Assembly: GCA_016926555.1 (NCBI GenBank)
Contig: JAFGOI010000008.1
Location: forward strand, 91,316-155,315
Length of the DNA stretch: 64,000 nt
Source of the DNA: Patescibacteria group bacterium
Lineage (GTDB): Bacteria; Patescibacteriota; WWE3; UBA101185; UBA10185
Direction of reading: 5' to 3'
Shown: piece by piece, positions 5,688 through 40,537 of the stretch
How positions within the stretch are numbered: position 1 is the stretch's first letter
Layout of the letters: each line of letters opens with the position of its first letter
Program-made: the position numbers and the translations under genes
The notes under the pieces: model-generated
The model's database searches: none
What the model was told of the DNA's origin: nothing
The model's input: only the letters and a program-made list of their open reading frames with translations

Positions 5688-6116
5688 CTATTCAATTATA
5701 CAATTTGTGCCGACTTGCGCAAGATCCATTACAGTGGCATCACTAAAATTATATACACATTGAAATTCGCACAGAGCACTACCATCAAGAGTAGGGATTG
5801 CCCCGCTGATAGTTATAGTTGCATCCGCAGTGGCTGCGGATTCAGTAAGCGTAAAGATACTACCCTCCGGAGGATTAGGTGGGTAGGTCACGTTAATATC
5901 ATCCCAAGAGTTACATCTTCTCGCGTCCACCTCACTCGCGCCACACGCTTTCAATGCGTAACACATCGTTTCAGTCATGGATCGCACAACTGCTTCATTG
6001 GCGCGTTGACTCTGCCTATTTGGATCTATAAGCGATACCAAAATACTAGCTAATATACCTATCACAGTAATAACTACTAAAATCTCCACAAGTGTAAAAC
6101 CGTTTTTTCTAATCAT
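5688..6116 (-). CDS. Type IV pilin-like protein
   Basis: RKNGFTLVEILVVITVIGILASIL prepilin motif. 142 aa. Confidence 0.7.
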   Translation of the reverse strand: MIRKNGFTLVEILVVITVIGILASILVSLIDPNRQSQRANEAVVRSMTETMCYALKACGASEVDARRCNSWDDINVTYPPNPPEGSIFTLTESAATADATITISGAIPTLDGSALCEFQCVYNFSDATVMDLAQVGTNCIIE

Positions 6117-6147
6117 AAAACATTTTCAAATTGATATATTTAAAGAT

Positions 6148-6172
6148 AAGGCGGGGCCTGCGGCCCCGCCTT
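6148..6172 (-). terminator. GC-rich hairpin (9-bp stem GGCGGGGCC/GGCCCCGCC, 3-nt loop) downstream of pilin gene 6182..6859
   Basis: aaGGCGGGGCCtgcGGCCCCGCCtt read directly. AT-rich on the 3' side in minus-strand sense. Confidence 0.45.
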
Positions 6173-6181
6173 GATCAATCG

Positions 6182-6859
6182 CTAATTAATATCCACTCTG
6201 GAACAGTTTGCATCGCCTGCGTAAGGATCCGTATCTACTGTCATATCTGTCGGATCAATTCCCGTCGCACCATTGCATTCGTACATACCAAATTCCGAAT
6301 GAATTACATACCACGTATTATTATCTACAACCGCGTCCGGATTTAATTCCCAGGCTTTCCCAATAATCGCAAAACGACCACCTCTCAATGGACCGGATAC
6401 AACCTTGAAGTGACATTGAGCTGTCCCATCTGCGGCCATACTATAGACATGATTAGTTTCGTTTCCAACATACGCCACACATGTGTCAGGCAACAATACA
6501 CTCGGAAAATTAAAATCCACGTCAATCCCTATAGTAGTATCGATTGGGTTATCTGTTGACAGTGGGCTATTTGTGTTTGAGTTCCCAACAACCTCCAGGT
6601 TATTAACCTCCAATAACAATTCATCTTCACATACCATTCTTCCGGTCGCAGAGCGAGCAGAATTTAGTCCATAACCCACTTTTTGCAAGGCAGATCTAAT
6701 TGCAGCATTTCTTGATCTATTCTGTTGTCTTATAGGATCAATTACTGCGATTAGAATACCGGCCAATATACCAATAATTATGATAACAATGAGTAACTCT
6801 ATAAGTGTGAAACCGCTGTCAAGATCTAATCTTGAAGTCTTTCTTTTAACTTCTTTCAT
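6182..6859 (-). CDS. Type IV pilin-like protein
   Basis: DSGFTLIELLIVIIIIGILAGILIAVIDPIRQQNRSRNAAIRSA. Paralog of the 7007..7681 product. Confidence 0.75.
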   Translation of the reverse strand: MKEVKRKTSRLDLDSGFTLIELLIVIIIIGILAGILIAVIDPIRQQNRSRNAAIRSALQKVGYGLNSARSATGRMVCEDELLLEVNNLEVVGNSNTNSPLSTDNPIDTTIGIDVDFNFPSVLLPDTCVAYVGNETNHVYSMAADGTAQCHFKVVSGPLRGGRFAIIGKAWELNPDAVVDNNTWYVIHSEFGMYECNGATGIDPTDMTVDTDPYAGDANCSRVDIN

Positions 6860-6948
6860 TCACTGCTCACCCCCTTCCAAAGCATGTTTTGTAAAAGTTT
6901 CATAAGCAACATAAAAATGGGCAGACAACTATTTGTTGCCTATATACA

Positions 6949-6981
6949 AGTATGAAGTCCAACACGCAGTATGTCAAGGAA
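6949..6981 (-). promoter_or_regulatory. Conserved promoter-like element, copy 1 (gene sense: TTGACA-N17-TTCATACT)
   Basis: Plus strand reads agtatgaa-N16-gtcaagg. One of five copies with an identical 24-nt offset between the two blocks. Lies upstream of pilin 6182..6859. Confidence 0.5.
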
Positions 6982-7006
6982 ATAGAAGTAAAACGAGGTA
7001 TTAACA

Positions 7007-7681
7007 TCAAAGGTCATCGAATCTGTCACAATTGTACCCATTCATTTCTATAGCATAAGAAAAATCCTCAATACTCATATCCGAGGGATCAAGGCCAGAA
7101 GGGGCAGAAGAGCATTCCCACAACCCATCGGAAGAATCAAACACATAATATAAACCATTAGTTAGATCCATATCTGGTGTCAACTCCCATGACTTGGCGA
7201 TAATTCTAAATTTGCCATCTCTTATAGGGCCGGAATTATATTGAAACACACACTGAGTAGTTCCTTCCATCGCGTCATCCCAATTAGTTTCGTTACAGGA
7301 CGATGGAAGTGCTACACCGGGAAAGTCAAATAACACCTCAGTCTCAACCGTTGTATTACCCAAACCGCCGTTTTCCGGATTTGAGCGATAAAGGTCAATT
7401 GTATCGGGGTTTATCACAACATTCTCAGTCTCTGTTTCTATATCGTTTTCATACGGAAGCCGGCCAGTTGAAGAACGCGCAGTATTTATACTGTATGCAA
7501 CTTTTTGAATCGCAGATCTGATAGCCGCATTTCTAGCTCGGTTCTGTTGTCTAATAGGATCTATAACTGCAATTAGAACTGCAGCCAGAATACCTATGAT
7601 TATAATCACTATAAGAAGTTCAATAAGCGTAAATCCACGATCAATAGAATATTTATCTTTCAACCAGTATTTAGACAACAT
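7007..7681 (-). CDS. Type IV pilin-like protein (start moved to internal Met before DRGFTLIELL)
   Basis: MLSKYWLKDKYSIDRGFTLIELLIVIIIIGILAAVLIAVIDPIRQQNRARNAAIRSA. The ORF track extends to 7762, but that region overlaps the upstream gene end and the promoter-like motif. Confidence 0.7.
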   Translation of the reverse strand: MLSKYWLKDKYSIDRGFTLIELLIVIIIIGILAAVLIAVIDPIRQQNRARNAAIRSAIQKVAYSINTARSSTGRLPYENDIETETENVVINPDTIDLYRSNPENGGLGNTTVETEVLFDFPGVALPSSCNETNWDDAMEGTTQCVFQYNSGPIRDGKFRIIAKSWELTPDMDLTNGLYYVFDSSDGLWECSSAPSGLDPSDMSIEDFSYAIEMNGYNCDRFDDL

Positions 7682-7714
7682 AGTTAGGGCAGGCGACCTT
7701 AATTGCCTATATTG

Positions 7715-7747
7715 AGTATGAATTGCACTAGTTATAAAGTCAAGAAA
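7715..7747 (-). promoter_or_regulatory. Conserved promoter-like element, copy 2 (TTGACT variant)
   Basis: agtatgaa-N16-gtcaagaaa with the same 24-nt offset, immediately upstream of the pilin start at 7681. Confidence 0.5.
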
Positions 7748-7761
7748 TAACACCAAGCGCA

Positions 7762-8667
7762 TTAGTCCGCTATGAAAAAGCTATAATCCATAACATCTGG
7801 CATATACGGACGGGATTTGTATACCGACATAATCTTAACCACTCTTTGTTCTGACTCCTCTACTAAATTACCTACCGCAGTTATTTTATAACCCTGCTCT
7901 GGAAGATCACCCACAGAAGGATACACACCAAAATTGGCGCTATTATACATAGACCTTATCCTCAAACCGAATTTTCTGGACGGATTAATCTCCGAGAGAT
8001 CAATTTCGGCACACCAATTAAAACCATCTTTCGCTTCCGCGTTAGCTTGTACAAATCCCCGCATCGACTCAAGTGGGTCATAAAACGCAATAGGGTAGTA
8101 ACCGCCTTTACTTACCATCCCAGCGTCATCATACGCTATATAATATAATGCTGTCTTATCATTATCCCAGCATACATTTATTTTATCGTCTGTATATACA
8201 CCGTTTGAGTCATATAGGGATATTTCCTTTAGCTGACCTGATGTAAGCGCAAATCTGTAATGATCCCCTGAACTTTTACTACTGGAGTTGTATTGAAACT
8301 TCTCTACGGTTACAACAGCTTCAGCTGAAATCTTATCGTAGCCAAGTGGCGGATAATCTACTATACATCCTTGAATCCCTTCTTCATATCTCAAGTTAAT
8401 CAACTCACAGTTTGTTTTATATCTATCGGGATCGGTCACGTCAGAAAGAGCCTCTAGTCTGCAATCACCAGCATTCAAATATCTTTCTATACCTCCTTCT
8501 ACAACAGCTGACAATCTCGCAGCCGTATCAGTGCGAGTCACTCTAGCTGATACAGCCAAACTTCGCGTCGCTATAGATAATCCAATAGTTAGAGCTATAA
8601 CAACAACTACAACTACTCCTAAAAGTACTTGCCCAGATTTATTACGCTTTTTATTTGCAATGTTCAC
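7762..8667 (-). CDS. PilX-like minor pilin/pilus assembly protein (cassette copy 1)
   Basis: N-terminus KSGQVLLGVVVVVVIALTIGLSIATRSLAVSARVTRTDTAARLSAVVEGGIERYL fits the PilX_N-type pattern (QxG, hydrophobic helix, AE-G). Paralog of the 11749..12657 product. Confidence 0.5.
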   Translation of the reverse strand: MNIANKKRNKSGQVLLGVVVVVVIALTIGLSIATRSLAVSARVTRTDTAARLSAVVEGGIERYLNAGDCRLEALSDVTDPDRYKTNCELINLRYEEGIQGCIVDYPPLGYDKISAEAVVTVEKFQYNSSSKSSGDHYRFALTSGQLKEISLYDSNGVYTDDKINVCWDNDKTALYYIAYDDAGMVSKGGYYPIAFYDPLESMRGFVQANAEAKDGFNWCAEIDLSEINPSRKFGLRIRSMYNSANFGVYPSVGDLPEQGYKITAVGNLVEESEQRVVKIMSVYKSRPYMPDVMDYSFFIAD

Positions 8668-11094
8668 TTAAAACGCCCCCTCCGTATCAAATTGAAGATC
8701 AAAAACCCGCAACCCCGTTAAGTGAACATTACAATAATCTGAATCTCTTTCCATCTTAGTAAAGTTTGGTATAAATGACGGATTGTATTTAACTGATTCT
8801 GCAGGATACATGTCATTTTCAACTCCTAAATCCCTAGTAAATAATATTTTCTTTGCAACTAACGGTCCTGTTAATAAGACTGGATAATCCGGCGGGGTAG
8901 GGTAGTTCTCTATCCTTATTTCCCCACTTGTGAGAAACCCTGCTTCCACATTTGAATCAGCTTGCAAATAATACCCATCTTGTGATCCATAAGACGTATA
9001 GCCTACATTAGGGTATACATGTACATTTGTGTCAGTAACAATAAACAAACATCCCGAATTCGTGCTGGGAATACGCATAATGTCGTCACGCACCTCTAAA
9101 TCCGATCCGTTGCCCTCAACATATATAACAGCATCTCCATTGACCAAATTATACTTTACAGGCCCTAAGTTAAAATCATCATTAAAATCCTGACTATTCA
9201 TTTTATGTACACCGCCAGCAATTACCTCACTAATATCAGATATCGCTCTTACATAGGCATGAGAAGGAGCAGAGAATGAAAACCTCGAATTATACCAATT
9301 CGAAATCATACCTGTATTTTCCGCGTAACCGCAATTATCAGCATTAGAAGGACACGCGCTGGTATCCGTATAATTTTCGGCATATGAATGAGCAAACGCA
9401 TCGCTAATACCATTGCCAGGATCCGAAAATTGCATTAATGAGCCATAAAATCCACCTCCCAACTCCTGCCCAGAAGAAACAACCTGTATATCGATCTCTT
9501 TAGAATACACATCACCATCTATAGAGGTATACCAAGGAGATACCTGTTCTTTAAATAGATCAACTAAAACTGGCACTCTCCCACACGAAATCGGAGTTAC
9601 ATTAATCTGCGTGGAAACACCTCCGCCAATAAACTCGTCTTCAACGCAATTAATTCGAAATAATGAGGTGCCCGGCGAATAAAATGTACTTACATTAAAT
9701 GTGTTAGAAGATGAGATTATATTATCAAATCCAACATGCCCGTTTTCAACACCATCCGAATCATCAGATGACCCATCAACTATAGTTCTAGAAGCACCCC
9801 CATCCGCATCCTGAACAGTAATAGAAACACCTCTGGCCTCTCCATTATCACTTGCACAATCCCCATAGTCGGATTCATTAACATAAAACTCTAGCATATA
9901 GTCGTAAATAACATTTATAAGACGTTCGTGCACACAAACTGTCGTATCATATCCATCTGATATATCCACTCTCACGTCACATAATTCACTATTATCTGGT
10001 TGAGAATGCACGGGGGGTAACCATACTACTGAAGGATCCGATCCTAAAACTACATTGCCATTCGGAAAACTTCCGTTGCATCCCAATGATGGATCACTAC
10101 AAGATTCACAGCTAACACTCCATGTATAAGTCATATTCCCAACACTACTCACATTCATACCATCGGCGTTGTTAATAGATAATACTATATTGCCGTCACA
10201 CATATTTACATCAATCTTATATCGGGAATCCCCCGGTTCCCACCAAGCGGTTTCATCACCGACTACAAAATCACCACAACTAGGCGGACAATTGATTATC
10301 ACAGGAACAGATAAACATAAATCAGTGGTAGTTACACCACTATCCTCTAAATATACCGCAGTTCCGATTTCACACACTTTCCCACAAGCACTCCCTTCCG
10401 GAGCAGTCCAAAAAAACGGATTAGAATTTCCACTTATACTCCCACACGAGGCTGTATGCTCATATTTAAAGGAGGGTGGGGGAGTAGGACCTTCTATATT
10501 TGAATATAACTCATATGTCCGCCCTGCAGCAGCTCTAAAAGTTCCTGAAGAATCCGCATTGGGAAATACAATATTTGAGCAATCGTAGACATCTATCTCA
10601 AACAAATCGGCGGTATCCTTTTTACCATCTGATGAGGAAAATGAAATCTGTCGGGTTCCGAAACCAATCGAATTATAAATCGCGCCGGTACAGTCAGCAC
10701 CAGAAAATCCTCCCTTATCAGAATCATCACCCCAATAGCATGATAAAGTGTCGCCATCTGGGTCCGAAGAAGAAGAATTTAAACGAACTGAAGAGTTTGA
10801 CATTATCTTTGCGGGACCGGAGTCTATTGAGCTCGCCGGAGCTTTATTTGGCTTAGTACAACTACCCTCGCAACTACAGACTTTTAAATCCCAGGTACTT
10901 TTAACGCAACTCCAATCTTTATTTCCGCCACTTCCATCACAATCATCATTATGACACACCCAACAACTTCCATCGTCAAAACAACCCCACTGATTGTACT
11001 CAAAACATTCACACTCAACCGCATAAGACAACCCAGAAACCACTAATAGAAGTGAAATAATCACTATCAATGTGGGCAGCTTTTTAAATTTCAC
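8668..11094 (-). CDS. Large secreted Cys-rich protein, candidate pilus-associated adhesin (PilY1-like position; cassette copy 1)
   Basis: 808 aa. Signal peptide MKFKKLPTLIVIISLLLVVSGLSYA, Cys-rich N-terminus, DPDGD/DSDG acidic motifs and conserved blocks (PPVHSQPDNSELCDV; TIVDGSSDDSDGVENG; FSD...DAFAH) shared with the 12660..15221 product. Flanked by PilX-like and small membrane protein genes. Confidence 0.5.
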   Translation of the reverse strand: MKFKKLPTLIVIISLLLVVSGLSYAVECECFEYNQWGCFDDGSCWVCHNDDCDGSGGNKDWSCVKSTWDLKVCSCEGSCTKPNKAPASSIDSGPAKIMSNSSVRLNSSSSDPDGDTLSCYWGDDSDKGGFSGADCTGAIYNSIGFGTRQISFSSSDGKKDTADLFEIDVYDCSNIVFPNADSSGTFRAAAGRTYELYSNIEGPTPPPSFKYEHTASCGSISGNSNPFFWTAPEGSACGKVCEIGTAVYLEDSGVTTTDLCLSVPVIINCPPSCGDFVVGDETAWWEPGDSRYKIDVNMCDGNIVLSINNADGMNVSSVGNMTYTWSVSCESCSDPSLGCNGSFPNGNVVLGSDPSVVWLPPVHSQPDNSELCDVRVDISDGYDTTVCVHERLINVIYDYMLEFYVNESDYGDCASDNGEARGVSITVQDADGGASRTIVDGSSDDSDGVENGHVGFDNIISSSNTFNVSTFYSPGTSLFRINCVEDEFIGGGVSTQINVTPISCGRVPVLVDLFKEQVSPWYTSIDGDVYSKEIDIQVVSSGQELGGGFYGSLMQFSDPGNGISDAFAHSYAENYTDTSACPSNADNCGYAENTGMISNWYNSRFSFSAPSHAYVRAISDISEVIAGGVHKMNSQDFNDDFNLGPVKYNLVNGDAVIYVEGNGSDLEVRDDIMRIPSTNSGCLFIVTDTNVHVYPNVGYTSYGSQDGYYLQADSNVEAGFLTSGEIRIENYPTPPDYPVLLTGPLVAKKILFTRDLGVENDMYPAESVKYNPSFIPNFTKMERDSDYCNVHLTGLRVFDLQFDTEGAF

Positions 11095-11682
11095 TTACAA
11101 AGGTTCTCCATAACAAGTTAGCTTTACTAATCCATTATCAGTCTTATCAACCGATATTTCAATATAATCCCCCGGATCAAGTATTTCTAGTATTTGGGGC
11201 GCACTAAAAAATTCCAGAAGATTAAAGGAATTTAAAGCAGTACCATTTTCCTTTTGTAATCGTCTCACCTCTAAAAACTCAAAATCAAACGATCTTATAA
11301 AAACATACGAGCCATCTTTTAAAATTACCTTCCCGCTACTTACATCTATCTCTTGTATATATCCATCATAAATTTTTTTATCGGAACTGCGCAACTTCCC
11401 GGGGCCAGTAAAAGGTTTGTATTCAGACAAGCACTCATCCAAATAGTATTTTGAGGGTCTAACTAACCATCCATCCTTCTTTTCTTCGGGCTCAAATTCA
11501 AATGAGTCCTCGTCTAAAGCAGAGACACTTTCGTGCACAGAATCGGGATAAATGCCTTCCACTAGTTCCAGCTCCTCTTCATCTTCTTTTAACAAATCCG
11601 GAAGGTATATATAGACCAAAGTGCCTAGAACAAAAAAACAAGAAATAACCATAAAAAAACCGGGCAGTGATTTTGTGTCCAT
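11095..11682 (-). CDS. Small N-terminally membrane-anchored protein (cassette copy 1), function unknown
   Basis: 195 aa. Single N-terminal hydrophobic segment FFMVISCFFVLGTLVYIYL. Positional and weak sequence paralog of the 15311..15907 product. Confidence 0.5.
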   Translation of the reverse strand: MDTKSLPGFFMVISCFFVLGTLVYIYLPDLLKEDEEELELVEGIYPDSVHESVSALDEDSFEFEPEEKKDGWLVRPSKYYLDECLSEYKPFTGPGKLRSSDKKIYDGYIQEIDVSSGKVILKDGSYVFIRSFDFEFLEVRRLQKENGTALNSFNLLEFFSAPQILEILDPGDYIEISVDKTDNGLVKLTCYGEPL

Positions 11683-11693
11683 ATATTGTACTC

Positions 11694-11726
11694 AGTATGA
11701 ATTCCTAAAAAATCGCTGTCAAGAAA
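11694..11726 (-). promoter_or_regulatory. Conserved promoter-like element, copy 3
   Basis: agtatgaa-N16-gtcaagaaaaa. Gene-sense TTTTTCTTGACA-N17-TTCATACT, 11 nt upstream of the ATG at 11682. Confidence 0.55.
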
Positions 11727-11748
11727 AATTTCCGCACGACAAGGATAG

Positions 11749-12657
11749 CTAGAAGGAACCATTCGTGAATATCGCGTAATCAAAAACATCGGGTAAATAT
11801 GGGTACGATCTATATACTGTAACCACTTTAACTGTTTTTTCCTCTGATTCCTCACTAAGCTCCCCCACAGACACTATTCTGTAACCCTGGGAAGTAAGGG
11901 ATCGCGAAGGACTTGGATACAACCCAAAAGTCGCATGATCATATAATGCCCTTAGTCTTAAACCGTAATACTGATTATTTTGTAGTTCCGCCAACGGGAT
12001 TGTCGCACACCATGTATATCCATCCCTGGAAACACTGCTTGCCTGTTCAAAACCCCGCATGGAGTCTAGCGGGTCAACAAACGCCCGCGGGTAGAATCCA
12101 CCCCTTGTTATATTACCTCTAGTGTCATAAGCAACATAATAAATAGCTGTGTTATCGTTATCCCAGCAAACATCAATCTCATTATTCCCATATGTATGTG
12201 TGCCATCGGTCAAAGGCAGTTCTTTCATCTGACCCGCATTCAACACAAACCTATAATGATTTTCATCATCAACGGCGGAATTATAGTCAAATTCCTCAAC
12301 AGTTACTATAGCTCTTGTTGCTATCTTATCATCTCCCTGAGGAGGAAAGTTCACAACACAACCTTCAATTCCCTCTACATATTCCATATTAGCATCATCG
12401 CAATATTGTTCATAACGATCCGCATCTGTAGTATCGGCAAAAGACCTTAGGCGACAGTCGTTTATAACCAGAAATCTTTCGGCGCCGCCTTCAACTGCCG
12501 CTATAAGTCTGGAAGCAGTGTCCGTACGAGATACCCTCGAAGACATGGATAATGTCCTTGTGGATATAGAAACTCCAACCGCCAATGCCACAGTAACCGC
12601 CACAACTACAGAAAGCAGTACTTGGCCTTTTTGTTTTTTAATAAACCTAATCATCAC
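11749..12657 (-). CDS. PilX-like protein (cassette copy 2)
   Basis: QKGQVLLSVVVAVTVALAVGVSISTRTLSMSSRVSRTDTASRLIAAVEGGAERF. Also shares RGFEQAS...DGYTWCATIPLAEL with the 7762..8667 product. Confidence 0.5.
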   Translation of the reverse strand: MMIRFIKKQKGQVLLSVVVAVTVALAVGVSISTRTLSMSSRVSRTDTASRLIAAVEGGAERFLVINDCRLRSFADTTDADRYEQYCDDANMEYVEGIEGCVVNFPPQGDDKIATRAIVTVEEFDYNSAVDDENHYRFVLNAGQMKELPLTDGTHTYGNNEIDVCWDNDNTAIYYVAYDTRGNITRGGFYPRAFVDPLDSMRGFEQASSVSRDGYTWCATIPLAELQNNQYYGLRLRALYDHATFGLYPSPSRSLTSQGYRIVSVGELSEESEEKTVKVVTVYRSYPYLPDVFDYAIFTNGSF

Positions 12658-12659
12658 AT

Positions 12660-15221
12660 TTAGTCTCCGTATGTAAATTGAACATCAAACATCCCAAGAC
12701 CAGTAAAATCTATATCACAGTAAGTTGGGTCTCTCTCTTCTCTTGTTAGATAGTAGAGAAAATCAGTACTATACTTTGTCGCCACCGCAGGATACATATC
12801 ATTGTCTAACACAAGATTACGATTGAAAGTAATGTTCTCAGCGACTAGCGGTCCTTGGAGAAGAAGAGGTATATCCGGCGGAGTCGCGGCACCTTCTATG
12901 TTAATAGTTCCGCTTGTAATTATACCTGCCTCAATATTAGGTCTCGCTTGAAGATTATACCCGCCAACACCGTAGGTAGCGTACCCAACCGATGCGTCAA
13001 TATTGACATCCGCGTCAGTTATAATCAACAAGTCATCGCTGTAAGTACTACTGTTCATATATCTGTGAATTGGCAAAGAAATATCAAGAGTAGAACCGCC
13101 ACTAGGTACGTACAAAATGCCAGCTTCTCTACGTCTGACTATAGTCGGCACATATCCAAGAGAACCCCATCTTGTAAACTCGGAGTTGAATCTTGAGGCA
13201 GTCATCGTGTTCACAACACTCCTATCATCAGACCAATCCCAGTTAACCTCATACAAATAACTCACAGTATTTACTTCAGAATGTGTCGGGGGCTGAAATG
13301 TATATACATTATCAAACCATTCGGATCTCATTGAAGTGTTTTTCGCAAAACCGCAGTGGTCAGCCTCGGGAGAGCACATCGCGGTATCTACAGCATTCTC
13401 ACTAAGAGTATGTGCGAACGCATCGTCAACGTGACTTGAAACATCTGAGAACTGCAATAACGAACCTACAAAACCATCTCCCAACTCCTCACCCGCACAC
13501 ACTACATCAGTATCCAAAGAATTTGCGTACACATCCCCATCAATGGCTATCTCCCATGAATTGAGCTCTTCCTCAAACAACTCAATATCCAAAGGTATAA
13601 CACCACAACCGCTTGGAGTTACACTTATCTGGGCAGACACACCGCCCCCTACAACTTCTCCCGGCACACAATTAAGATGCCATCGCGCACATTCAGGAGA
13701 GTAAAACACATCAACATTAAATGTATGAGATGATGACCGGATAGCGTCAAAAAGAATCTTACCATTTTCTGTTCCATCGGAATCACTCCCAGAACCATCA
13801 ACAATTGTATAAACCCTAGAATTACTAACATCCCTATACGTTATAGAAACACCATCCGCAGTACCTTGGTGATCATCACAATCCTCATATGGTGTCTCAA
13901 ACACATTGAACTCAAGCTGATATGTATATGTAATATTAACAAAATCGGTATAAACTTCTGAGTTGCTTTCAAACCCATCAAAAACCGTAACAACTACATC
14001 GCATTTTTCGGAATTATCAGACTGAGAATGAACAGGAGCCCTCCATAATATCTCTGCATTAGGCATGGTACTGACATTGCCGCTGGGAAAAGTCCCATTA
14101 TCACCCGAGTCACAATATACATTCCACGTATAGACCAGATGCTCGGTATCTCCCGGGTCAGGATCATCAGCTCCATACCCTGGACGGGTCATACTTTGCA
14201 TCGTAAATACCTCGTCGCCATCACAAGCATTAACATCATGTGTAAATATACTAAATGGAAAATAGTTTTGGCCATTAACATACGGCCATCCAAGAACAGG
14301 GAGCCTATTTATTAAAACATCCGCTCGTTGACACCAATTTGTCGTATTATTAACATGCGCCCTTGATCTCACCCTGCATGTTTCACCTCTATGAGTCTCA
14401 TCCGGAGAAGTCCAAACAAACGGACTGACATCCCGGCCACCTATTATCCCGCATGTTGAATCATCCGGCGCTAGGGCATCATTTGTATAAGTAAATGTAG
14501 GCGGATTCGGGGGACCCTCTATTGTTGTGTTGACAATATAGTTGTGCGTTCCAGTTTCGGGGGATTGAGGAACCGCTCTTGGTTTTCCAAGCCAGTCAAA
14601 AGCTTTATAACCTGAAACATCTGAGGTTGGCCAATCAACACTTTCACAATCATAAACATCTATTGTATAGGGACACTCAGCTGTTTTTCCCCCTCGGCTT
14701 TCAGCATGATTTATAATACTCACATTCCCATGATTCTGCGTAGTATGGTTATAAACCGCGGAGTTGCAATCCGCGCCCGTACTAAAATCCCCATTATCCG
14801 GATCATCTCTCCATGTACATGTTACAGTATCACCATCTGAATCTGAGGCAGAAGATGTATACGTAATACCAGATGAATTCGCCATTATATCCTGGACACC
14901 CACCGGAGTAGTACAGGTTGGAGGATGGTTCGTGGGCGGACTTCCTTTACTACAAGGGCAATGGCAATGGCAGGGAGGGTTGGGCGCTGCACATGTTGTT
15001 GGCTCATTAACAAGAATTCCTGTTGAACTACAACACCAACATTCGTCACCAGGGCAATCAGCACCGCAGTCGCAACTATAACATGTCTGACCTTCCCCGG
15101 GGCACGAATCACTTTTACTCATACAACTCGCGGCATATACATCTTCATTTAGACCAATATATAAAGTAGCAAAGAGGGACAAAAACAAAATTTTAAATAC
15201 AAAAGGCAGATTCTTTTTCAT
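12660..15221 (-). CDS. Large secreted Cys-rich protein, candidate adhesin (cassette copy 2)
   Basis: 853 aa. Signal peptide, then Cys/His-rich N-terminus (CHCHCPCS) and blocks shared with the 8668..11094 product across its full length. Confidence 0.5.
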   Translation of the reverse strand: MKKNLPFVFKILFLSLFATLYIGLNEDVYAASCMSKSDSCPGEGQTCYSCDCGADCPGDECWCCSSTGILVNEPTTCAAPNPPCHCHCPCSKGSPPTNHPPTCTTPVGVQDIMANSSGITYTSSASDSDGDTVTCTWRDDPDNGDFSTGADCNSAVYNHTTQNHGNVSIINHAESRGGKTAECPYTIDVYDCESVDWPTSDVSGYKAFDWLGKPRAVPQSPETGTHNYIVNTTIEGPPNPPTFTYTNDALAPDDSTCGIIGGRDVSPFVWTSPDETHRGETCRVRSRAHVNNTTNWCQRADVLINRLPVLGWPYVNGQNYFPFSIFTHDVNACDGDEVFTMQSMTRPGYGADDPDPGDTEHLVYTWNVYCDSGDNGTFPSGNVSTMPNAEILWRAPVHSQSDNSEKCDVVVTVFDGFESNSEVYTDFVNITYTYQLEFNVFETPYEDCDDHQGTADGVSITYRDVSNSRVYTIVDGSGSDSDGTENGKILFDAIRSSSHTFNVDVFYSPECARWHLNCVPGEVVGGGVSAQISVTPSGCGVIPLDIELFEEELNSWEIAIDGDVYANSLDTDVVCAGEELGDGFVGSLLQFSDVSSHVDDAFAHTLSENAVDTAMCSPEADHCGFAKNTSMRSEWFDNVYTFQPPTHSEVNTVSYLYEVNWDWSDDRSVVNTMTASRFNSEFTRWGSLGYVPTIVRRREAGILYVPSGGSTLDISLPIHRYMNSSTYSDDLLIITDADVNIDASVGYATYGVGGYNLQARPNIEAGIITSGTINIEGAATPPDIPLLLQGPLVAENITFNRNLVLDNDMYPAVATKYSTDFLYYLTREERDPTYCDIDFTGLGMFDVQFTYGD

Positions 15222-15243
15222 CTTACTAACACCTTAGCACTTA

Positions 15244-15276
15244 GTATGAATGGCCAACTCTTTACTGTCAAGAAAA
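15244..15276 (-). promoter_or_regulatory. Conserved promoter-like element, copy 4
   Basis: Gene-sense TTTTTTCTTGACAGTAAAGAGTTGGCCATTCATACT, followed by AAGGTG (SD-like) and the ATG at 15221. Confidence 0.55.
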
Positions 15277-15310
15277 AATATTAGGAAAAATTGCACAGCA
15301 CGATTCAAAT

Positions 15311-15907
15311 TTATCTCTCGTCACAATAAACATCCATCCTGACATATCCATCAGAATCGAGCACAAATGTAGCAAAATCGCCGGAATTTATATAGTTTAG
15401 AAAAGCAGGGGATTCCTCCTCCAATTTTAGAGTATACACATTTGTTTCGAGACTTTCAGTTGTTTGAACAAGATAAACCAACAAATCAGCGACAAAGACC
15501 TCCTCACCATTCTTTAGCACAAGTGACCCATTATCTACATTTACCGACTCTATAAAAGAATGCAAACGATCTCCCACCCGTGCATAACCCACTTCCGGCA
15601 TTTCACCCGGTTTATAGTCCGACACACATTTATCTATATCTTCTCCGCTCAACTGATTACCGGACCCATCCCGAGCTGTATAGGAAATATAATCAGAGAA
15701 CGCGGACTTACTCGGATCCGACGACAAATCTCCACTTTGATCTTTATCAATCAGGTCAGATTTTGTGTCTGCAGGAATGTCAGAGGACCCGCTGTCTTTC
15801 AAAACAGGTCTTCTAACATTAACACCTTTTGTGACAAAATAAACTGCAAGTAGAATCACACACAAAACCGAGGCTATAATAACAAAAGGTAGAAACTTTT
15901 TATTCAT
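15311..15907 (-). CDS. Small N-terminally membrane-anchored protein (cassette copy 2); start moved to Met of MNKKFLPFVII
   Basis: The promoter-like copy 5 overlaps the upstream part of the track ORF, so the true start is most likely 15907. Hydrophobic segment FVIIASVLCVILLAVYFV. Confidence 0.5.
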   Translation of the reverse strand: MNKKFLPFVIIASVLCVILLAVYFVTKGVNVRRPVLKDSGSSDIPADTKSDLIDKDQSGDLSSDPSKSAFSDYISYTARDGSGNQLSGEDIDKCVSDYKPGEMPEVGYARVGDRLHSFIESVNVDNGSLVLKNGEEVFVADLLVYLVQTTESLETNVYTLKLEEESPAFLNYINSGDFATFVLDSDGYVRMDVYCDER

Positions 15908-15926
15908 ACACTTATATCTAGCTTTT

Positions 15927-15959
15927 AGTATGAACGGAGTAGTATTTGTTGTCAAGATA
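15927..15959 (-). promoter_or_regulatory. Conserved promoter-like element, copy 5
   Basis: Gene-sense TTATCTTGACAACAAATACTACTCCGTTCATACT, 19 nt upstream of the ATG at 15907. Confidence 0.55.
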
Positions 15960-15978
15960 AAACCAAAAAGTATAGTAA

Positions 15979-16407
15979 TTAACCGACAAATGATTTTATT
16001 TCGTCCAGAATTTTATCAGGAGTGATCTCGGATTTAATAAGATAACCAGACGCACCCAATTTGAAAGCTTCATCAATAATATGTTCGCTGTTAAGATTGG
16101 TGAGAACAATAACTGGCCCTTTCTTAATATCCTTCGTATCTTTAATCTCTTTTAGAATTCTAATTCCGTCTTTAACAGGCAGGATCACATCAAGTAGCAG
16201 GAGATCCCATACCTCATTTTGAATCATTTCAAGACCAATGTTGCCATCCGAAGCCTGTAGTACTTCGTAACCTGCATCCATCAATATCTCAGCATAAAGT
16301 AAGCGTATATCGTGCTCATCCTCAACTATAAGAATAGTCTTCTTCGGCGGATTAAGTGTCACCATACTAGTTATAATAGTAACACATTTAGTAGGGGAGT
16401 TTGTCAA
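15979..16407 (-). CDS. Single-domain response regulator (CheY-like receiver only)
   Basis: ILIVEDEHDIRLLYAEIL...LLLLDVILP...LTNL...GYLIKS. 142 aa, no output domain. Confidence 0.85.
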   Translation of the reverse strand: MTNSPTKCVTIITSMVTLNPPKKTILIVEDEHDIRLLYAEILMDAGYEVLQASDGNIGLEMIQNEVWDLLLLDVILPVKDGIRILKEIKDTKDIKKGPVIVLTNLNSEHIIDEAFKLGASGYLIKSEITPDKILDEIKSFVG

Positions 16408-16421
16408 TAGTATCTTTTGTA

Positions 16422-16811
16422 CTACTTTAAAACCCGTTTCACTTCGTTTAAGATCTTATCCGGAGTAATATCCGATTTTACGATGTATCCGGTTGCACCT
16501 AGCTTATACGCCTCATCTGGCACGTGATCACTCTTGAGATTGGTGAGCAGAATTATGGGACCTTTTTGTAAGCATTCCGAATCCCTAAGATCCTTCAGTA
16601 TCGCCATCCCATCTTTCTCGGGTAATATTACATCCAATAACAGAACGTCCCAGTTTTCGTTTTGGATTTTCTCTTTTCCCTCATTTCCATTTACTGCCTG
16701 GATTACGATGTAACCTGCATCAGTTAGGATTTCTGCGTAGAGTAGGCGAATGTCTTTTTCGTCTTCTACAAGAAGTATTGCACGCTTTTTATTATCCTTG
16801 GATCCGATCAT
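16422..16811 (-). CDS. Single-domain response regulator (CheY-like), tandem paralog
   Basis: ILLVEDEKDIRLLYAEILTDAGY...LLLDVILPEKDG...LTNL...GYIVKS. 129 aa. Confidence 0.85.
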   Translation of the reverse strand: MIGSKDNKKRAILLVEDEKDIRLLYAEILTDAGYIVIQAVNGNEGKEKIQNENWDVLLLDVILPEKDGMAILKDLRDSECLQKGPIILLTNLKSDHVPDEAYKLGATGYIVKSDITPDKILNEVKRVLK

Positions 16812-16878: not shown

Positions 16879-19341
16879 CTATATCCGACGTACAATACTT
16901 CTTTTCAAATCTAACTCTATAACTTCGTTATCTTTAAAAACCTTTGTTGCGATTTTCGTCCCTATGACACAAGGTATATTAAGCTCTCTTGATATAATCG
17001 CTGCGTGACAGGTCATACCTCCCTCATCTGTTACAATTGCTGCGGCTCTTCTCATTGCAGGAGAATATTGCGGTGTAGTCATAGTTGCTACTAAAACATC
17101 TCCCTCCTGAACTTTACTCATTTCTTTATGCGATCTTAATACTTTGGCTGTCCCTTTTAATCTATCAACATTACCAGAAGACACGGTCAATCCTTGTACA
17201 CTATGTACTGAACCCAAATCCGGTCTTAGCTCTTCGGTTAGAGCAATCACATCCTCAGGATCTTCGATAATCTCATATGTACCATTTACATAGTATAGAA
17301 TGTACGGATTGTCTATCCTTCTACTATAGATCTCCAACATCCTATGAGAATCGTCTATATTCTGTTTCAGCTCTTCAAACGAAAGATACTTAAATACATC
17401 TTCCGAAACATTCGTTTTTTCAGCTAAAACACTAAAAACCCTGTGCATAGCAATATGAGACTTATTGGTTGCCTCCTTTCTCTCATCCGACATCCGAGAA
17501 AGCGTGTGCACATATCCAATCTTTCTTAAATAATGCCCATCAAGGTTATACTTTGTTTTAATATCCGAGTGCAACTGTTTCGTATCATCTTCAAACCTAG
17601 ATAACTCTTCATATCTTTCCGTTAGTTCTTTCTTACTTTTTTCTAAATATTTACATATCTCCGCAATATAGTACTCCCTATCATACAGGTTGGGTCCATC
17701 ATACCCAAACGGTACCCAATAATACTTTTCAACCAATTGATCTATGGCATCTTGGATCCATCCTGGTAATTTTATAAAGTCAACATTCCTTTTCTTAAAT
17801 ACACTTTTTTGCCTCCCACTTACAATATCTAGACATAATTTAACTACCTGGTATTCTTCATCTAAACTAAACGACTTTTCCGGATTCATACTCATCACCC
17901 TATATTCTTCGGGTTCCATATCGAAACGCATAGACTCCTCCAGCAAATGCTTCCCTAAGGAATCTCCACCAACAAGCCAAGGAATAGAATTAAAACTGTT
18001 GTACTTCTCCCAATTATCCTTGATCTTCCTATATCTATTAATTAATTTGTTAATTGTATATTCACCTAGAGGCTCCTCCATAATCTTTTCCGATATAGAC
18101 ATCAATTTCCGCCCCTGTTCAAGTTGAGTATTATAGATTTTTGGTAGATACAATGGATCCTCAATATAAAGTTTCTTAAAGTGCTCTTCCATTAGTTTCC
18201 ACTCATTCTCAACTACAAAAGACGTTAAATCACCGTTGGGTTCAAATAATGTCCAAGCCTGTGGTAATCGAGTACCATGAAGTTCTTCAGTTACAGGGTG
18301 TGTTCTACTTGTATAATTCCACATACATGATACTAATTTAAGCTTTCTTGCCCTTAACATCCTGTATTTGTTGTCAGAATATTCAAAAACGTCTTTCTTG
18401 AGTGTTGTAATTGGCCGATTCTGCAAAATATATAACTTGTCATTTGCATAACACCATTCAACATCACAGGGAAACCTTGATATGCTTTCGATTTTCATAA
18501 CCTTATCTGCCAAGCATAATATTCTCTTATCATCAAGTTTTTGTTCTATTCCCTCTTCAAGGCTAATATCTTTAGCAATACATCCGCTTTCATCACAAAA
18601 CGTTGCCTCACTTTGATTATTAATCTGTTTAGAAAGTATTAGTTTTGTTTCCTTATCTACCACATAGCTATCTGGATGAATTTGCCCAGAAACAAGTTTC
18701 TCGCCCAAGCCATAACATGCTTCGATAAGAATATGATTTGTATTTTCCGTAATCGGATGTACACTAAAACACACTCCGGAAACCTCACTACTAACCATAC
18801 GTTGAACAACTACAGCAACCCCTATATCGGCCGAGTGAAACCCGTTTTCTACACGATAATACAAAGCTTTCGGTGAGTACAAAGACATCCAGCACGATTT
18901 GATACTCTCCACTAGATTATCCTTTGGTACACCTAGATACGTTTCTAGTTGACCTGCCCAAGCATAGTTCTTTCCATCTTCAACAGTTGCACTTGATCTA
19001 ACAGCAACATACCTACAATCAAGTTTATCGAAAGATTCCTCAATGCTCTCAATTATATATTCTGGAATCGTAACATCCTTAATTCTATTTGATATATTCT
19101 CCGACGCTCTCTCAAGATTACTTATATCTTGGGTATCAAGCGTACTTATTTGCGTATCTATTTCTAACATTAATTCTGGATTTAACACAATCTCCCTAAA
19201 AATACCCGTACTCACTATAAAACCCGGCGGAACCGGCACACCCTGTTTAATGAGATCTCCTAGGAAAGCGCCTTTTCCACCAACTAAATGAACATCTTTC
19301 CTAGAGACATTTTTCAAATTTATTATTGACTTATTAGACAT
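16879..19341 (-). CDS. PEP-utilising enzyme family phosphotransferase: PPDK_N-type ATP-grasp N-terminus plus C-terminal mobile phosphohistidine domain (rifampicin-phosphotransferase-like domain order; not a canonical PpsA)
   Basis: N-terminus VHLVGGKGAFLGDLIKQGVPVPPGFIVST. The C-terminal ~70 aa GGMTCHAAIISRELNIPCVIG is a swivel His domain. No PEP/pyruvate-binding TIM-barrel domain follows it. Confidence 0.7.
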   Translation of the reverse strand: MSNKSIINLKNVSRKDVHLVGGKGAFLGDLIKQGVPVPPGFIVSTGIFREIVLNPELMLEIDTQISTLDTQDISNLERASENISNRIKDVTIPEYIIESIEESFDKLDCRYVAVRSSATVEDGKNYAWAGQLETYLGVPKDNLVESIKSCWMSLYSPKALYYRVENGFHSADIGVAVVVQRMVSSEVSGVCFSVHPITENTNHILIEACYGLGEKLVSGQIHPDSYVVDKETKLILSKQINNQSEATFCDESGCIAKDISLEEGIEQKLDDKRILCLADKVMKIESISRFPCDVEWCYANDKLYILQNRPITTLKKDVFEYSDNKYRMLRARKLKLVSCMWNYTSRTHPVTEELHGTRLPQAWTLFEPNGDLTSFVVENEWKLMEEHFKKLYIEDPLYLPKIYNTQLEQGRKLMSISEKIMEEPLGEYTINKLINRYRKIKDNWEKYNSFNSIPWLVGGDSLGKHLLEESMRFDMEPEEYRVMSMNPEKSFSLDEEYQVVKLCLDIVSGRQKSVFKKRNVDFIKLPGWIQDAIDQLVEKYYWVPFGYDGPNLYDREYYIAEICKYLEKSKKELTERYEELSRFEDDTKQLHSDIKTKYNLDGHYLRKIGYVHTLSRMSDERKEATNKSHIAMHRVFSVLAEKTNVSEDVFKYLSFEELKQNIDDSHRMLEIYSRRIDNPYILYYVNGTYEIIEDPEDVIALTEELRPDLGSVHSVQGLTVSSGNVDRLKGTAKVLRSHKEMSKVQEGDVLVATMTTPQYSPAMRRAAAIVTDEGGMTCHAAIISRELNIPCVIGTKIATKVFKDNEVIELDLKRSIVRRI

Positions 19342-19496
19342 ACTCTAGCATTATAGAATTCTGGCAGAATTATAACACGCGGCGACAATATTTATAACTT
19401 GTAGTAATAAAATTAATGTTTTAAAAAGTTGTTTCATCGGTTTTGTCACTGGTTAAATTGACACCATAACAATAAATTCGTATCATACAAATCACC

Positions 19497-20714
19497 ATGG
19501 AAACTTTAGAGGAACTAGGTTTAATATATAACTGGGATAAAAAAAGGGTTATTAATAACAAAAAAATTCTGGATACTTCCCTTAGAGACGGCCTACAAGA
19601 TCCCTCTATAAGACAACCTAGTCTTGAAGAAAAAATAAAATTAATAGACTTAATGGATTCAGTTGGAGTGGATGCTGCAGATATCGGATTTCCAGTAAAT
19701 TCGAAGTCACACAAAAATGAAGTTATCGAAACCGCAAAACATATAAAGGAAAAAAATCTTGGGATTGAAGTATGCGTATTAGCACGCACGCAAAAAAAAG
19801 ATATTGAAGCCGCAATAGAGGTGTCACAGAAAGCTCAGATACCGGTCGAAGTAATAACTATAGTGGGAAGTAGTAAAGTAAGACACTTCGTAGAGAACTG
19901 GAATCTTGACCAAGTCAAAAAATGGATAAAAGAATGTATTACTCTGGCACTTAAAAACAATCTTGAAGTAAATTTTCTAACTGAAGATGGTACACGAACG
20001 GAACCAGGAATGCTTACAGATCTGTATAAATACGCAATTGACTTAGGCGCTTCCAAAGTTACGATTGCCGACACGGTCGGTTTTGCTACTCCTTATGCAA
20101 CAAAAAAGATAATCGAACTATTTAAAAAGGACATACTTAAGAAAAACAAAGATATCACATTAGATTGGCATGGACATAACGACAGAGATTTCGGCACCAT
20201 CAATGCTTTAGAAGCTTTTGAATCAGGTGCAGACAGGGCACACGTATGTATCTTAGGAATAGGAGAGAGAGCGGGTAACACGGCCATGGAACCGCTGCTA
20301 GTTAATATGAAAATGATGGGAATGGCTAACGGTAAAAACCTAAGGGAACTCCCACAACTCTCAATGTACGCCTCTAATATCTTTAATATCAATATACCCC
20401 AAAATATGCCCATCGTTGGGGAATACGTACACACAACGTCCGTTGGAATACATGCTTCCGCAATATTAAAAGCTAGAAATATGTACAGGGAGGACCTCGC
20501 TAATACAGTCTACTCTGGAGTCAATCCGCAGTACGTGGGACTAAAAACTGAGATATTTGTAGGGCCTTTGAGTGGAAGGGCTAATGTTATATATGTACTA
20601 AGAAAACACGGAATTGAGCCAACAGAAGAAAAAATAGAAAAAGTATTGAAACACGCTTCATCTAAAAATGTGGTTCTAAAAGACGATGAGGTCCTTCTTA
20701 TAACCAAGGACTAG
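19497..20714 (+). CDS. HMGL-like/DRE-TIM metallolyase family protein (2-isopropylmalate/homocitrate/citramalate synthase-like, no LeuA regulatory domain)
   Basis: LDTSLRDGLQD near the N-terminus and DWHGHNDRDFGTINALEAFESGA (HxH metal motif). 405 aa. Confidence 0.65.
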   Translation: METLEELGLIYNWDKKRVINNKKILDTSLRDGLQDPSIRQPSLEEKIKLIDLMDSVGVDAADIGFPVNSKSHKNEVIETAKHIKEKNLGIEVCVLARTQKKDIEAAIEVSQKAQIPVEVITIVGSSKVRHFVENWNLDQVKKWIKECITLALKNNLEVNFLTEDGTRTEPGMLTDLYKYAIDLGASKVTIADTVGFATPYATKKIIELFKKDILKKNKDITLDWHGHNDRDFGTINALEAFESGADRAHVCILGIGERAGNTAMEPLLVNMKMMGMANGKNLRELPQLSMYASNIFNINIPQNMPIVGEYVHTTSVGIHASAILKARNMYREDLANTVYSGVNPQYVGLKTEIFVGPLSGRANVIYVLRKHGIEPTEEKIEKVLKHASSKNVVLKDDEVLLITKD

Positions 20715-20724
20715 TGTCATAATG

Positions 20725-25590: not shown

Positions 25591-25816
25591 GGTTCAAAAA
25601 GATTTGCATAGGGAACTCGGGACCGTTATATATAGATTTGTAAGCTAAATAGATCGAACTCGAGAAGGGACTCCAAATAGAATATCTGTATTGATTCATC
25701 TGATAAATCATTCATATAAACATAAATGCCCGAGTCATCCCGGGCATTTAGTAATCACTTTCGATTAGCTGCCACAATTGCACCCTTTAGATGTATCACA
25801 TTAAAGAAACTTAAAA

Positions 25817-25843
25817 GCCCCCAAACAGAGTAGGGGGCTTTTT
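25817..25843. terminator. Bidirectional intrinsic terminator downstream of pilA (GCCCCC-N10-GGGGGC with flanking T/A runs)
   Basis: aaaaGCCCCCaaacagagtaGGGGGCttttt. U-run on both strands. A second hairpin TGCCCGagtcatcCGGGCA lies at 25726..25747. Confidence 0.6.
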
Positions 25844-25896
25844 AGTAATTTGCAATTCAGACAGACAACTGCAAATCTGAGCATCGAAGATACAGA

Positions 25897-30521: not shown

Positions 30522-30599
30522 AGGGCAGTACTACTTTATGATAACAACTAGAGTTACATATAGCAATCAGTAAATTAGCACACGTAGTATAATAAAAAT

Positions 30600-40523: not shown

Positions 40524-40537
40524 ACCTAAATCCAGAA

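Follow-up and report, generated by a model that had tools for sequence, protein, structure and literature searches.

A candidate pilus promoter class with a CATACT -10 box in WWE3-like Patescibacteria

Type IV pili are central to host attachment, movement and DNA uptake in the Patescibacteria (CPR). A search for literature on control of their expression in this group returned nothing, and neither the motifs considered here nor Patescibacteria promoters or sigma factors were found described. The canonical sigma-70 promoter is TTGACA-N17-TATAAT; substitutions in region 2.4 of sigma-70 change the preference at -12 from T to C, and E. coli sigma-S favours TATACT followed by TAA. The sporulation sigmas of Firmicutes read -10 elements of the CATA type, sigma-G about CATnnTA or CATACTA, sigma-E CATACAnT and sigma-K CATAnnnTA, with GnATR, ATA and AC as their respective -35 boxes, and Patescibacteria are not known to sporulate.

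How does the present locus compare? Within the window, the whole 64-kb stretch of DNA that was analysed, the minus strand carries (T)TTCTTGAC[A/T]-N15-TTCATACT five times. An earlier note on this DNA had recognised all five copies, though it started the fourth at 15244 rather than 15243, and it had placed 17 nt between TTGACA and the downstream block; the actual arrangement, TTGACA-N15-TTCATACT, equals TTGACA-N17-CATACT, i.e., the 17-bp spacer that is optimal for sigma-70. The copies, their neighbouring genes and one terminator are as follows.

6949-6982, minus strand: candidate promoter copy 1 (-35 TTGACA at 6972-6977, 17-bp spacer, -10 CATACT at 6949-6954), 89 nt from the start codon of the pilin gene 6182-6859, minus strand
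7715-7748, minus strand: candidate promoter copy 2 (TTGACT-N17-CATACT), ahead of the paralogous pilin gene 7007-7684 by 30 nt
11694-11727, minus strand: candidate promoter copy 3, with the ATG of the small cassette protein gene 11095-11682 following after 11 nt
15243-15276, minus strand: candidate promoter copy 4, ahead of the 853-aa gene 12660-15221 by 21 nt
15927-15960, minus strand: candidate promoter copy 5, ahead of the small cassette protein gene 15311-15907 (ATG at 15907) by 19 nt
7762-15907, minus strand: two tandem cassettes, each of a small (195/198 aa), a large (808/853 aa) and a PilX-like (301/302 aa) protein gene
6150-6170, minus strand: strong intrinsic terminator, GGCGGGGCcgcaGGCCCCGCC then a T-rich tract, directly after the pilin gene 6182-6859

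The measured distances to the starts bear out the 11-90 nt given previously. A search of the window with AGTATGAA-N16-GTCAAGRAAA, allowing up to two mismatches, yields exactly five sites, on one strand only, where dinucleotide shuffles give a chance expectation of 0.03 and five sites were reached in none of 100 shuffles. The shorter core TTGAC-N18-CATACT has the identical five exact matches and, across the 64 kb, only two unrelated matches with one mismatch; an independent repeat finder also retrieves the element, as its family D3. The spacer is 17 bp in all five. The -35, earlier taken to be consensus, is so in four copies (TTGACA), with TTGACT in the copy at 7715. Scored against TTGACA/TATAAT the element reaches 10/12 (9/12 for copy 7715), CATACT keeping four of the six -10 bases, A-11, T-10, A-9 and T-7, and the T-12 expected for sigma-70 is C in 5/5. 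A T-rich tract ending in C sits just upstream of the -35. Identity among the copies is 100% in the blocks, 29% (random level) in the spacers, 33% in the 10 nt downstream and 36% in the 8 nt upstream. As the blocks are invariant and the spacers nearly random, in a setting where the duplicated proteins are merely 27-53% identical, the two promoter blocks are, judged from these identities, kept by selection.

The cassette paralogues are 27% (small), 41% (large) and 53% (PilX-like) identical, and the two pilins that come after the cassettes are 51% identical to each other. Sequence searches of Pfam, NCBIfam and PDB gave no match for the 808/853-aa, small or PilX-like cassette proteins, and the name adhesin, given earlier to the 853-aa protein, draws no support from them. 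The five elements head the genes for the 853-aa protein, for both small cassette proteins and for both of the paralogous pilins. Behind copy 3 the genes 11095-11682, 8668-11094 (808 aa) and 7762-8667 (PilX-like) abut without gaps; behind copy 4 come the 853-aa gene and then the PilX-like gene 11749-12657, and copy 4 is without a counterpart before the paralogous 808-aa gene. Because of its own strong terminator the pilin gene 6182-6859 makes a monocistronic unit with promoter 1, and with orthologues widely conserved the pilins behind copies 1 and 2 look like major-type rather than the minor ones they had been called. The position of copy 3, so close to the ATG, predicts a leaderless or near-leaderless mRNA. 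Copy 5 has two stand-alone response-regulator genes (15979-16407 and 16422-16811) immediately before it. Elsewhere in the window, 22 kb off, is a tyrosine recombinase gene (38485-39507). The statement that nothing similar precedes pilA or the other pilins holds: nothing resembling the element lies before the pilA-like gene 25897-26394 or the remaining pilins of the window, and pilin 1927-2493 carries TTGACA-N17-TAAGAT in place of the CATACT type.

Is the element peculiar to this genome? Forty-two loci were fetched from relatives, and 362 kb of non-redundant sequence, biased toward pilus loci, was scanned (64 kb from the genome itself and about 300 kb from relatives). Exact TTGAC-N18-CATACT is present in 25 of the 42 loci, which reduce to some 13 different promoters of some 12 WWE3-like lineages, in each case oriented with the gene and lying shortly before a pilin gene; the chance estimate from base composition is about 0.3 matches in 362 kb. 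Those loci retrieved by pilin protein homology alone, and with upstream sequence available, had the promoter in 5/5, and single-cassette genomes keep one copy, before the pilin. Among 21 aligned pilus promoters, 20 have TTGAC and 20 the 17-bp spacer (18 in L028), while the base at -12 is C in 18, T in two, G in one and never A; C-12 and C-8 persist almost without exception over deep divergence. Of 22 promoters, 12 have an ATG 6-11 nt past the -10 (binomial P about 4e-6), near the predicted +1, and in five of the 12 this ATG is the start codon of the pilin or cassette gene. Non-pilus promoters of the same genomes, anchored on TTGAC[AT]-N17, have TATCAT, TAAGAT, TAACAT, TACAAT and TAGTAT, i.e., TAnnAT, which is also the -10 of their housekeeping promoters, often as a -10 alone. 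TTGACA-N17-CATACT precedes no non-pilus gene within the 362 kb of this pilus-biased sample. That the same promoter stands before orthologous pilins in many genomes and before no non-pilus gene in the sequence scanned supports a dedicated pilus promoter class. The dedicated regulon that had been proposed is in that light a reasonable reading, the class being pilus-restricted in relatives, though specificity across the whole genome is not proven by a pilus-biased sample.

The explanation preferred, at a probability of about 0.72, is that all five elements function as promoters of the sigma-70 family, with a TTGACA -35, a 17-bp spacer and a CATACT -10. Geometry, position and orientation all fit the promoter reading of the earlier note. 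The units served in this type IV pilus accessory cluster would be small protein 2; the 853-aa and PilX-like proteins; small protein 1 with the 808-aa and PilX-like proteins; pilin B; and pilin A, whose transcript would terminate at its own terminator. WWE3-like Patescibacteria would share the element across the clade as their pilin promoter, and here it would have spread to the duplicated cassette genes, with co-expression of pilins and cassette proteins as the outcome. It would be read by RNA polymerase through the primary sigma, or else through a paralogue very near to that sigma and of identical -35 specificity, the perfect -35 presumably making up for the non-consensus -10. C-12 and C-8 mark the promoter class and probably carry class-specific information. 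The transcription start sites are predictions from sequence, and so are initiation at them, the sigma proposed and co-regulation.

Against the primary sigma is the occurrence of C-12 where sigma-70 region 2.4 normally reads T; its strictness is unlike drift under generic primary-sigma selection and may point to another sigma or to a regulator bound there. Could there be a dedicated alternative or paralogous sigma, sharing the TTGACA -35 and preferring (T)CATACT as its -10, that defines a pilus regulon? Near-invariance of C-12 and C-8 over such divergence does suggest base-specific reading and not weakening, and the housekeeping promoters found in this DNA carry TAnnAT. However, neither the -35 nor the spacer sets the element apart from promoters of housekeeping type in these genomes, the known CATA-reading sigmas have quite different -35 boxes, and a signature-motif scan of the window and all fetched loci disclosed no sigma-factor gene for inspection, all of which leaves such a sigma unlikely.

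The earlier note had considered the -10 poor, and from that had suggested activator dependence or a recognition element other than that of sigma-70. An activator acting on a weak -10, for instance downstream of the GAF histidine kinase or the response regulators, would make contact at the conserved TTCATACT or TTTC-TTGAC blocks, and the neighbourhood gives it some appeal, with a stand-alone receiver gene directly before the promoter-bearing gene in the window, L007, L032, L041, L001, L004 and L039, and, in the window, L001, L032 and L041, a GAF-HisKA kinase not far off. It is nevertheless rather improbable, as CATACT at ideal 17-bp spacing, with A-11 and T-7 kept and 10/12 overall, is not obviously poor and on sequence grounds requires no activator, the adjoining response regulators are without a DNA-binding domain, and the promoter alignment shows no extra conserved upstream site beyond the T-rich tract. 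Recognition by something other than sigma-70 is not supported by these data. That the copies are no transcription signals, being instead passive relics of tandem duplication or shufflon-like sites of recombination or inversion, might be entertained in a tandemly duplicated region of a window with a tyrosine recombinase gene, but the perfect blocks amid spacers and flanks of random identity, the unmatched copy 4, and the single copy retained at the pilin of single-cassette genomes make it very improbable indeed; all copies are direct, with 0 inverted, and the sole recombinase is distant.

If the elements are sigma-70-family promoters, as preferred here, what would their transcripts begin with? 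The leaders of the two pilin genes have the following features.

6923-6941, minus strand: leader hairpin AGGCAAC-aaata-GTTGTCT, starting 7 nt after the -10 of copy 1, where the transcript is predicted to begin, with GCCC next
7691-7708, minus strand: the equivalent hairpin AGGC...GCCT of copy 2
6856-6912, minus strand: 18-codon upstream ORF (MLLMKLLQNMLWKGVSSE, then stop), spanning the pilin Shine-Dalgarno (GGGGGTG), with an ATGA overlap with the pilin start

Similar short ORFs are in L008, L010, L014, L015 and L030. MAFFT plus RNAalifold on 11 leaders gave no consensus structure, the alignment being unusable. When the hairpin is tied to the CT of CTGCC, significance is reached only in w6949, w7715, L010 and L024 (Fisher combined P 0.08), and such a hairpin is statistically supported only for a subset of leaders, with no claim of a universal leader structure. 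In Rfam the only gathering-level match of the window is a tRNA, and nothing meaningful appears at E<=10 in 6100-16100.

A further signal is CTGCCC, in this pilus-biased sample the most enriched hexamer near gene starts, strand-specific and at the 5' ends of pilus cistrons.

6919-6924, minus strand: CTGCCC in the pilin leader
7687-7692, minus strand: CTGCCC 5 nt before the pilin ATG
11662-11667, minus strand: CTGCCC at +15 of the small protein gene
11074-11079, minus strand: CTGCCC at +15 of the 808-aa gene
15204-15209, minus strand: variant CTGCCT at +12 of the 853-aa gene
30523-30528, minus strand: CTGCCC directly before the pilB ATG, which is without a Shine-Dalgarno
23192-23197, plus strand: CTGCCC at +10 of the GAF histidine kinase gene

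It occurs within about 15 nt of the starts of pilB, pilM, pilN, pilC, major and minor pilins, cassette proteins and the histidine kinase, mostly genes without a Shine-Dalgarno or with a leaderless AUG. Its use of all three reading frames disposes of a conserved peptide, and a DNA-uptake sequence was rejected with merely 27 copies, on both strands, in the window; a variable distance of 12 to 48 nt from the -10 makes a DNA operator of fixed register unlikely. No Rfam family or paper describing CTGCCC or the promoter was found. A tentative suggestion is that the promoter is one half of a clade-wide pilus control code of which CUGCCC, as a new translation-initiation or operator element, is the other. 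Either the ribosome itself would read it, or a small RNA or RNA-binding protein would do so, and if the suggestion is true the type IV pilus genes of Patescibacteria form a regulon that CUGCCC defines at the post-transcriptional level.

What would this mean for the group? The control signal for its pilus genes looks like a real and previously undescribed one. The promoter class would be a cis-element with which to predict the pilus regulon across thousands of uncultured genomes, a handle on the sigma factor or regulator that reads the CATACT element, and a source of native promoters, putatively strong, that could serve the genetic systems now emerging for the group. C-12 and C-8 present a testable case of a promoter subclass kept distinct despite a standard -35 and spacing. 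CTGCCC, if confirmed, would add an unrecognised layer of translational control where translation signals are poorly understood.

Several classes of described signal were sought in the window. Sigma-54 promoters (TGGCAC-N5-TTGCW), the type usual for proteobacterial pilA, gave 20 loose matches versus 19.7 expected, none of them upstream of pilus genes; GG-N10-GC sites are not above chance, with none upstream of the cluster genes; the ComX/SigX cin-box TACGAATA, known from the competence pili of Gram-positive bacteria, has 0 matches; and site-specific inversion or shufflon repeats were set aside on the orientation of the copies and the remoteness of the recombinase.

The ompA 5' hairpin is a stabilising 5'-terminal stem-loop, and leader-peptide attenuators are regulatory leaders with upstream ORFs. 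Several of the lineages here likewise have a hairpin at the predicted 5' end and an ORF running through the pilin Shine-Dalgarno, but the invariant CTGCCC beside the hairpin is without a known counterpart. In a CATAC(T)-type -10 that would define a developmental or structural regulon the element is reminiscent of Firmicute sigma-G, sigma-E and sigma-K promoters; their -35 boxes are unlike TTGACA, the window and fetched loci showed no gene for such a sigma, and the likeness is one of resemblance only. To the canonical sigma-70 promoter the likeness is closer in form, with a perfect or near-perfect -35, a 17-bp spacer, A-11 and T-7, an intergenic site in sense orientation, and a start codon or leader hairpin at the predicted +1; the difference is a CATACT with C-12 and C-8, conserved over deep divergence and, in the sample, limited to pilus genes. 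In having what appears to be a promoter class dedicated to type IV pilins, the WWE3-like Patescibacteria resemble the Proteobacteria with their sigma-54/PilR pilin promoters and the bacteria that use the ComX cin-box.

Five same-strand copies of a promoter-like element had been claimed by an earlier note, and this is borne out, as AGTATGAA-N16-GTCAAGRAAA, with up to two mismatches, matches the 64-kb window five times on a single strand, at 6949, 7715, 11694, 15243 (previously given as 15244) and 15927, where dinucleotide-preserving shuffles lead to an expectation of 0.03 matches and 0 of 100 reach five. A repeat finder recovers the family independently, as D3, and the core TTGAC-N18-CATACT is exact at the same five sites, one mismatch adding only two unrelated ones. 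On the minus strand, which is the direction of the genes, their sequence is (T)TTCTTGAC[A/T]-N15-TTCATACT; the spacing previously written as TTGACA-N17-TTCATACT was a miscount, there being 15 nt to TTCATACT and 17 bp to CATACT. They parse as a TTGACA -35, a 17-bp spacer and a CATACT -10, with a promoter scan score of 10/12 (9/12 for copy 7715).

6949, minus: promoter copy, 89 nt upstream of pilin 6182-6859
7715, minus: promoter copy, 30 nt upstream of pilin 7007-7684
11694, minus: promoter copy, 11 nt upstream of small protein 1 (11095-11682)
15243, minus: promoter copy, 21 nt upstream of the 853-aa protein (12660-15221)
15927, minus: promoter copy, 19 nt upstream of small protein 2 (15311-15907)

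The genes concerned are part of a type IV pilus system whose nearest database proteins are from "Patescibacteria group bacterium" (locus tags JXA34_) and then candidate division WWE3. Numerous pilin genes occupy 0-7.7 kb, the stretch 24.6-30.5 kb encodes PilB, PilT, PilC, a pilA-like pilin and PilD, 23182-24612 encodes a GAF-HisKA kinase, and 7.7-16 kb is a tandemly duplicated three-gene cassette, encoding small (195/198 aa), large (808/853 aa) and PilX-like (301/302 aa) proteins, with two stand-alone response-regulator genes before it and two paralogous pilins (51% identical) after it. The 808-aa paralogue abuts small protein 1 and is without an element of its own. Could the copies be mere debris of duplication? 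Their two blocks are 100% identical, whereas identity is 29% in the 15-nt spacers, 33% in the 10 nt that follow the element and 36% in the 8 nt that precede it, as would be expected of random sequence with this base composition. Since the neighbouring coding sequences have diverged (cassette paralogues to 27%, 41% and 53% amino-acid identity for small, large and PilX-like, respectively), neutral DNA would be unrecognisable, and the blocks are therefore, on this comparison, maintained by selection. A reading as inversion sites is excluded because all copies are direct, and scans exclude sigma-54 and cin-box promoters.

Related loci (L001-L042) were fetched from other genomes by two motif-independent routes, via the PilX-like protein and via homologues of pilin 6182-6859 with their contigs. 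Loci from the first route show a conserved gene order: response regulator, small protein, large protein, PilX-like, pilins, PilM/N/O. Exact TTGAC-N18-CATACT is present in 25 of the 42, representing about 13 distinct promoters in about 12 lineages, always on the gene strand just upstream of a pilin gene. By the pilin-homology route it is in all five independent loci having upstream sequence (L030, where it precedes two pilins, L032, L035, L041 and L042); L039 and L040 have no promoter there, their pilin directly adjoining the PilX-like gene. Near-variants are GATACT (L013), TTGATT-N17-TATACT (L014), CATAAT (L024) and N18-TATACT (L028). In 362 kb of non-redundant sequence the motif occurs 18 times, with about 0.3 expected from base composition, though promoters of orthologous genes do not count as fully separate observations and the sampled loci are biased toward pilus genes. 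One contig, L007 (CAZLZR010000144.1), is labelled 'uncultured Acetivibrio sp.', has the Patescibacteria-type PilX-like, response regulator and pilin order with the exact promoter, and is probably mis-binned.

By what polymerase would such a promoter be read? The consensus of 21 is tTtcTTGACA-N17-(t)CATACTt(a/t)a, and cassette genes in relatives also have C-initial -10s (CATAAT in L014, CAAAAT in L009). Since promoter-like sites anchored on TTGAC[AT]-N17 before non-pilus genes have TAnnAT -10s (TATCAT, TAAGAT twice, TAACAT, TACAAT, TAGTAT), and in many housekeeping genes nothing but a TATAAT-like box near the ATG is seen, CATACT is, within this sample of part of one genome and pilus-biased loci, a putative pilus-specific -10 variant. 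These sequences are best read as one -35-dependent class of sigma-70-family promoters, which would drive pilin co-expression and, in this genome, that of the duplicated cassette genes with the pilins. In -35 and spacer they agree with the housekeeping-type promoters found in these genomes, a point in favour of the primary sigma or a close paralogue as the reader. The -12 base of the aligned pilus promoters is C in 18, G in 1, T in 2 and never A, and C at -8 is also near-invariant across deep divergence, which is unlike generic primary-sigma selection and suggests base-specific reading. Possible leads are the CATA-type -10 boxes of Firmicute sigma-G, sigma-E and sigma-K, the preference of E. 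coli sigma-S for TATACT then TAA, and the substitutions in sigma-70 region 2.4 that change -12 preference to C; no sigma gene was found in the window or any fetched locus. The sequence does not call for the activator that was suggested earlier on account of a 'poor' -10, and the adjacent response regulators are without a DNA-binding domain.

In 12 of 22 promoters (window plus loci, ORF starts being assigned mechanically here and in the hexamer counts below) the first ATG is 6-11 nt after the -10, the distance at which transcription from a sigma-70-type promoter is expected to begin (chance rate 0.13 per promoter, binomial P about 4e-6). Five of these ATGs (copy 11694, L001, L009, L013 and L028) open the pilin or cassette ORF itself, which implies leaderless mRNAs, and the others open short ORFs running to or over the pilin start. 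Pilin leaders in the window (6856-6941, 7679-7708) and in L008, L010, L014, L015, L024 and L030 have a hairpin at the predicted transcript 5' end, and short ORFs, 17-61 codons long, that extend across the pilin Shine-Dalgarno (SD) sequence to finish at or beyond the pilin start codon, several with an ATGA overlap; behind copy 7715 the pilin itself starts at the corresponding ATG. In several lineages a hairpin ends just before GCCC with quite different arms: AGGCAAC/GTTGTCT (copy 6949), AGGC/GCCT (copy 7715), AGATGAAT/GTTCATCT (L010), AGATGAATA/TATTCATCT (L024) and a long stem (L015). A universal leader structure is not claimed, the anchored-hairpin test being significant in a subset only (combined P 0.08). 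With a strong terminator at 6150-6170, copy 6949 and pilin 6182-6859 form a predicted complete monocistronic unit, as expected of a highly expressed pilin. Many window housekeeping genes (holB 30600, aconitase 22635, PPDK-like 19341) have a TATAAT-like box about 10-25 nt from the ATG and no SD.

About 19 of the 22 promoters have a conserved CTGCC(C/T) downstream, at 12-48 nt from the -10. No hexamer is more enriched than CTGCCC at -30 to +36 of 386 ORF starts (23 observed versus 3.4 expected, 6.7-fold), SD and ATG-containing words ranking behind it, and its reverse complement is not enriched (1 versus 2.9), making it strand-specific. It is usually 4-15 nt after the start codon or 1-12 nt before, in all three reading frames, often where an SD is absent, as directly before the pilB start in the window, L001 and L014. 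It marks pilM, pilN, pilC, a minor-pilin family, the GAF kinase and the cassette proteins, both large and small, and of 30 start-proximal cases about 28 are pilus genes in a sample biased toward pilus loci; within the window, 6 of about 23 pilus-related ORFs have it close to their start versus 0 of about 37 others (estimated hypergeometric P about 0.002), and genome-wide over-representation was not found.

6919-6924, minus: CTGCCC
7687-7692, minus: CTGCCC
11074-11079, minus: CTGCCC
11662-11667, minus: CTGCCC
30523-30528, minus: CTGCCC
23192-23197, plus: CTGCCC

The box also occurs at ORF starts in many related loci. Its start-proximal enrichment, on one strand, in three frames and at pilus genes, therefore identifies it as a putative mark of the 5' ends of pilus cistrons, set at the nucleotide level and specific to one strand, and its location within the ribosome footprint points to a possible translational operator or enhancer.

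Other features of the neighbourhood deserve mention. A stand-alone receiver-domain protein is kept directly upstream of promoter-bearing pilus genes (window 15979-16811, two copies; L001, L004, L007, L032, L039, L041); the receiver is without an output domain, and a GAF-HisKA kinase is encoded nearby. Small RNHCP-domain zinc-ribbon proteins (PF12647), possible candidate regulators, recur beside PilD, GAF-kinase, response-regulator or pilin genes in several relatives (L004 4475-4765; L032 64-516, 3058-3366; L041 1-339, 2928-3236), with one in the window at 39763-40074. Between the pilus core and accessory cluster, 16879-22635 is a metabolic block (PEP/pyruvate dikinase-like, homocitrate/isopropylmalate synthase-like, aconitase-family, HbpS-like), unusual for a reduced Patescibacteria genome. 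The pilA-like gene is followed by a 306-nt non-coding gap (25591-25896) with a GCCCCC...GGGGGC terminator and a second hairpin, also GC-rich, GCCCGGG...CTCGGGC. An integrated mobile element may occupy 38485-46187, where a tyrosine recombinase, a YebC-family gene, an 844-aa TrwB/T4SS-coupling-protein-like ATPase and 659 nt free of ORFs (40075-40733) are found. ORF 48338-49357 is an odd fusion of a weakly Lgt-like N-terminal region and a C-terminal DksA/TraR C4 zinc finger, and overlaps its neighbours by 29-41 nt; gene boundaries may be mis-set.

How does all this relate to what is known? Rfam has no matching family for the promoter or leader signals, and full-text literature searches turned up no account of pilin promoters in Patescibacteria, CATACT-type promoters in a pilus context or CTGCCC in connection with pilins. 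The CTGCCC box is possibly new, and the element, as judged from its sequence, is of a known kind, a sigma-70-family promoter, but a distinct, conserved and function-specific variant of it.
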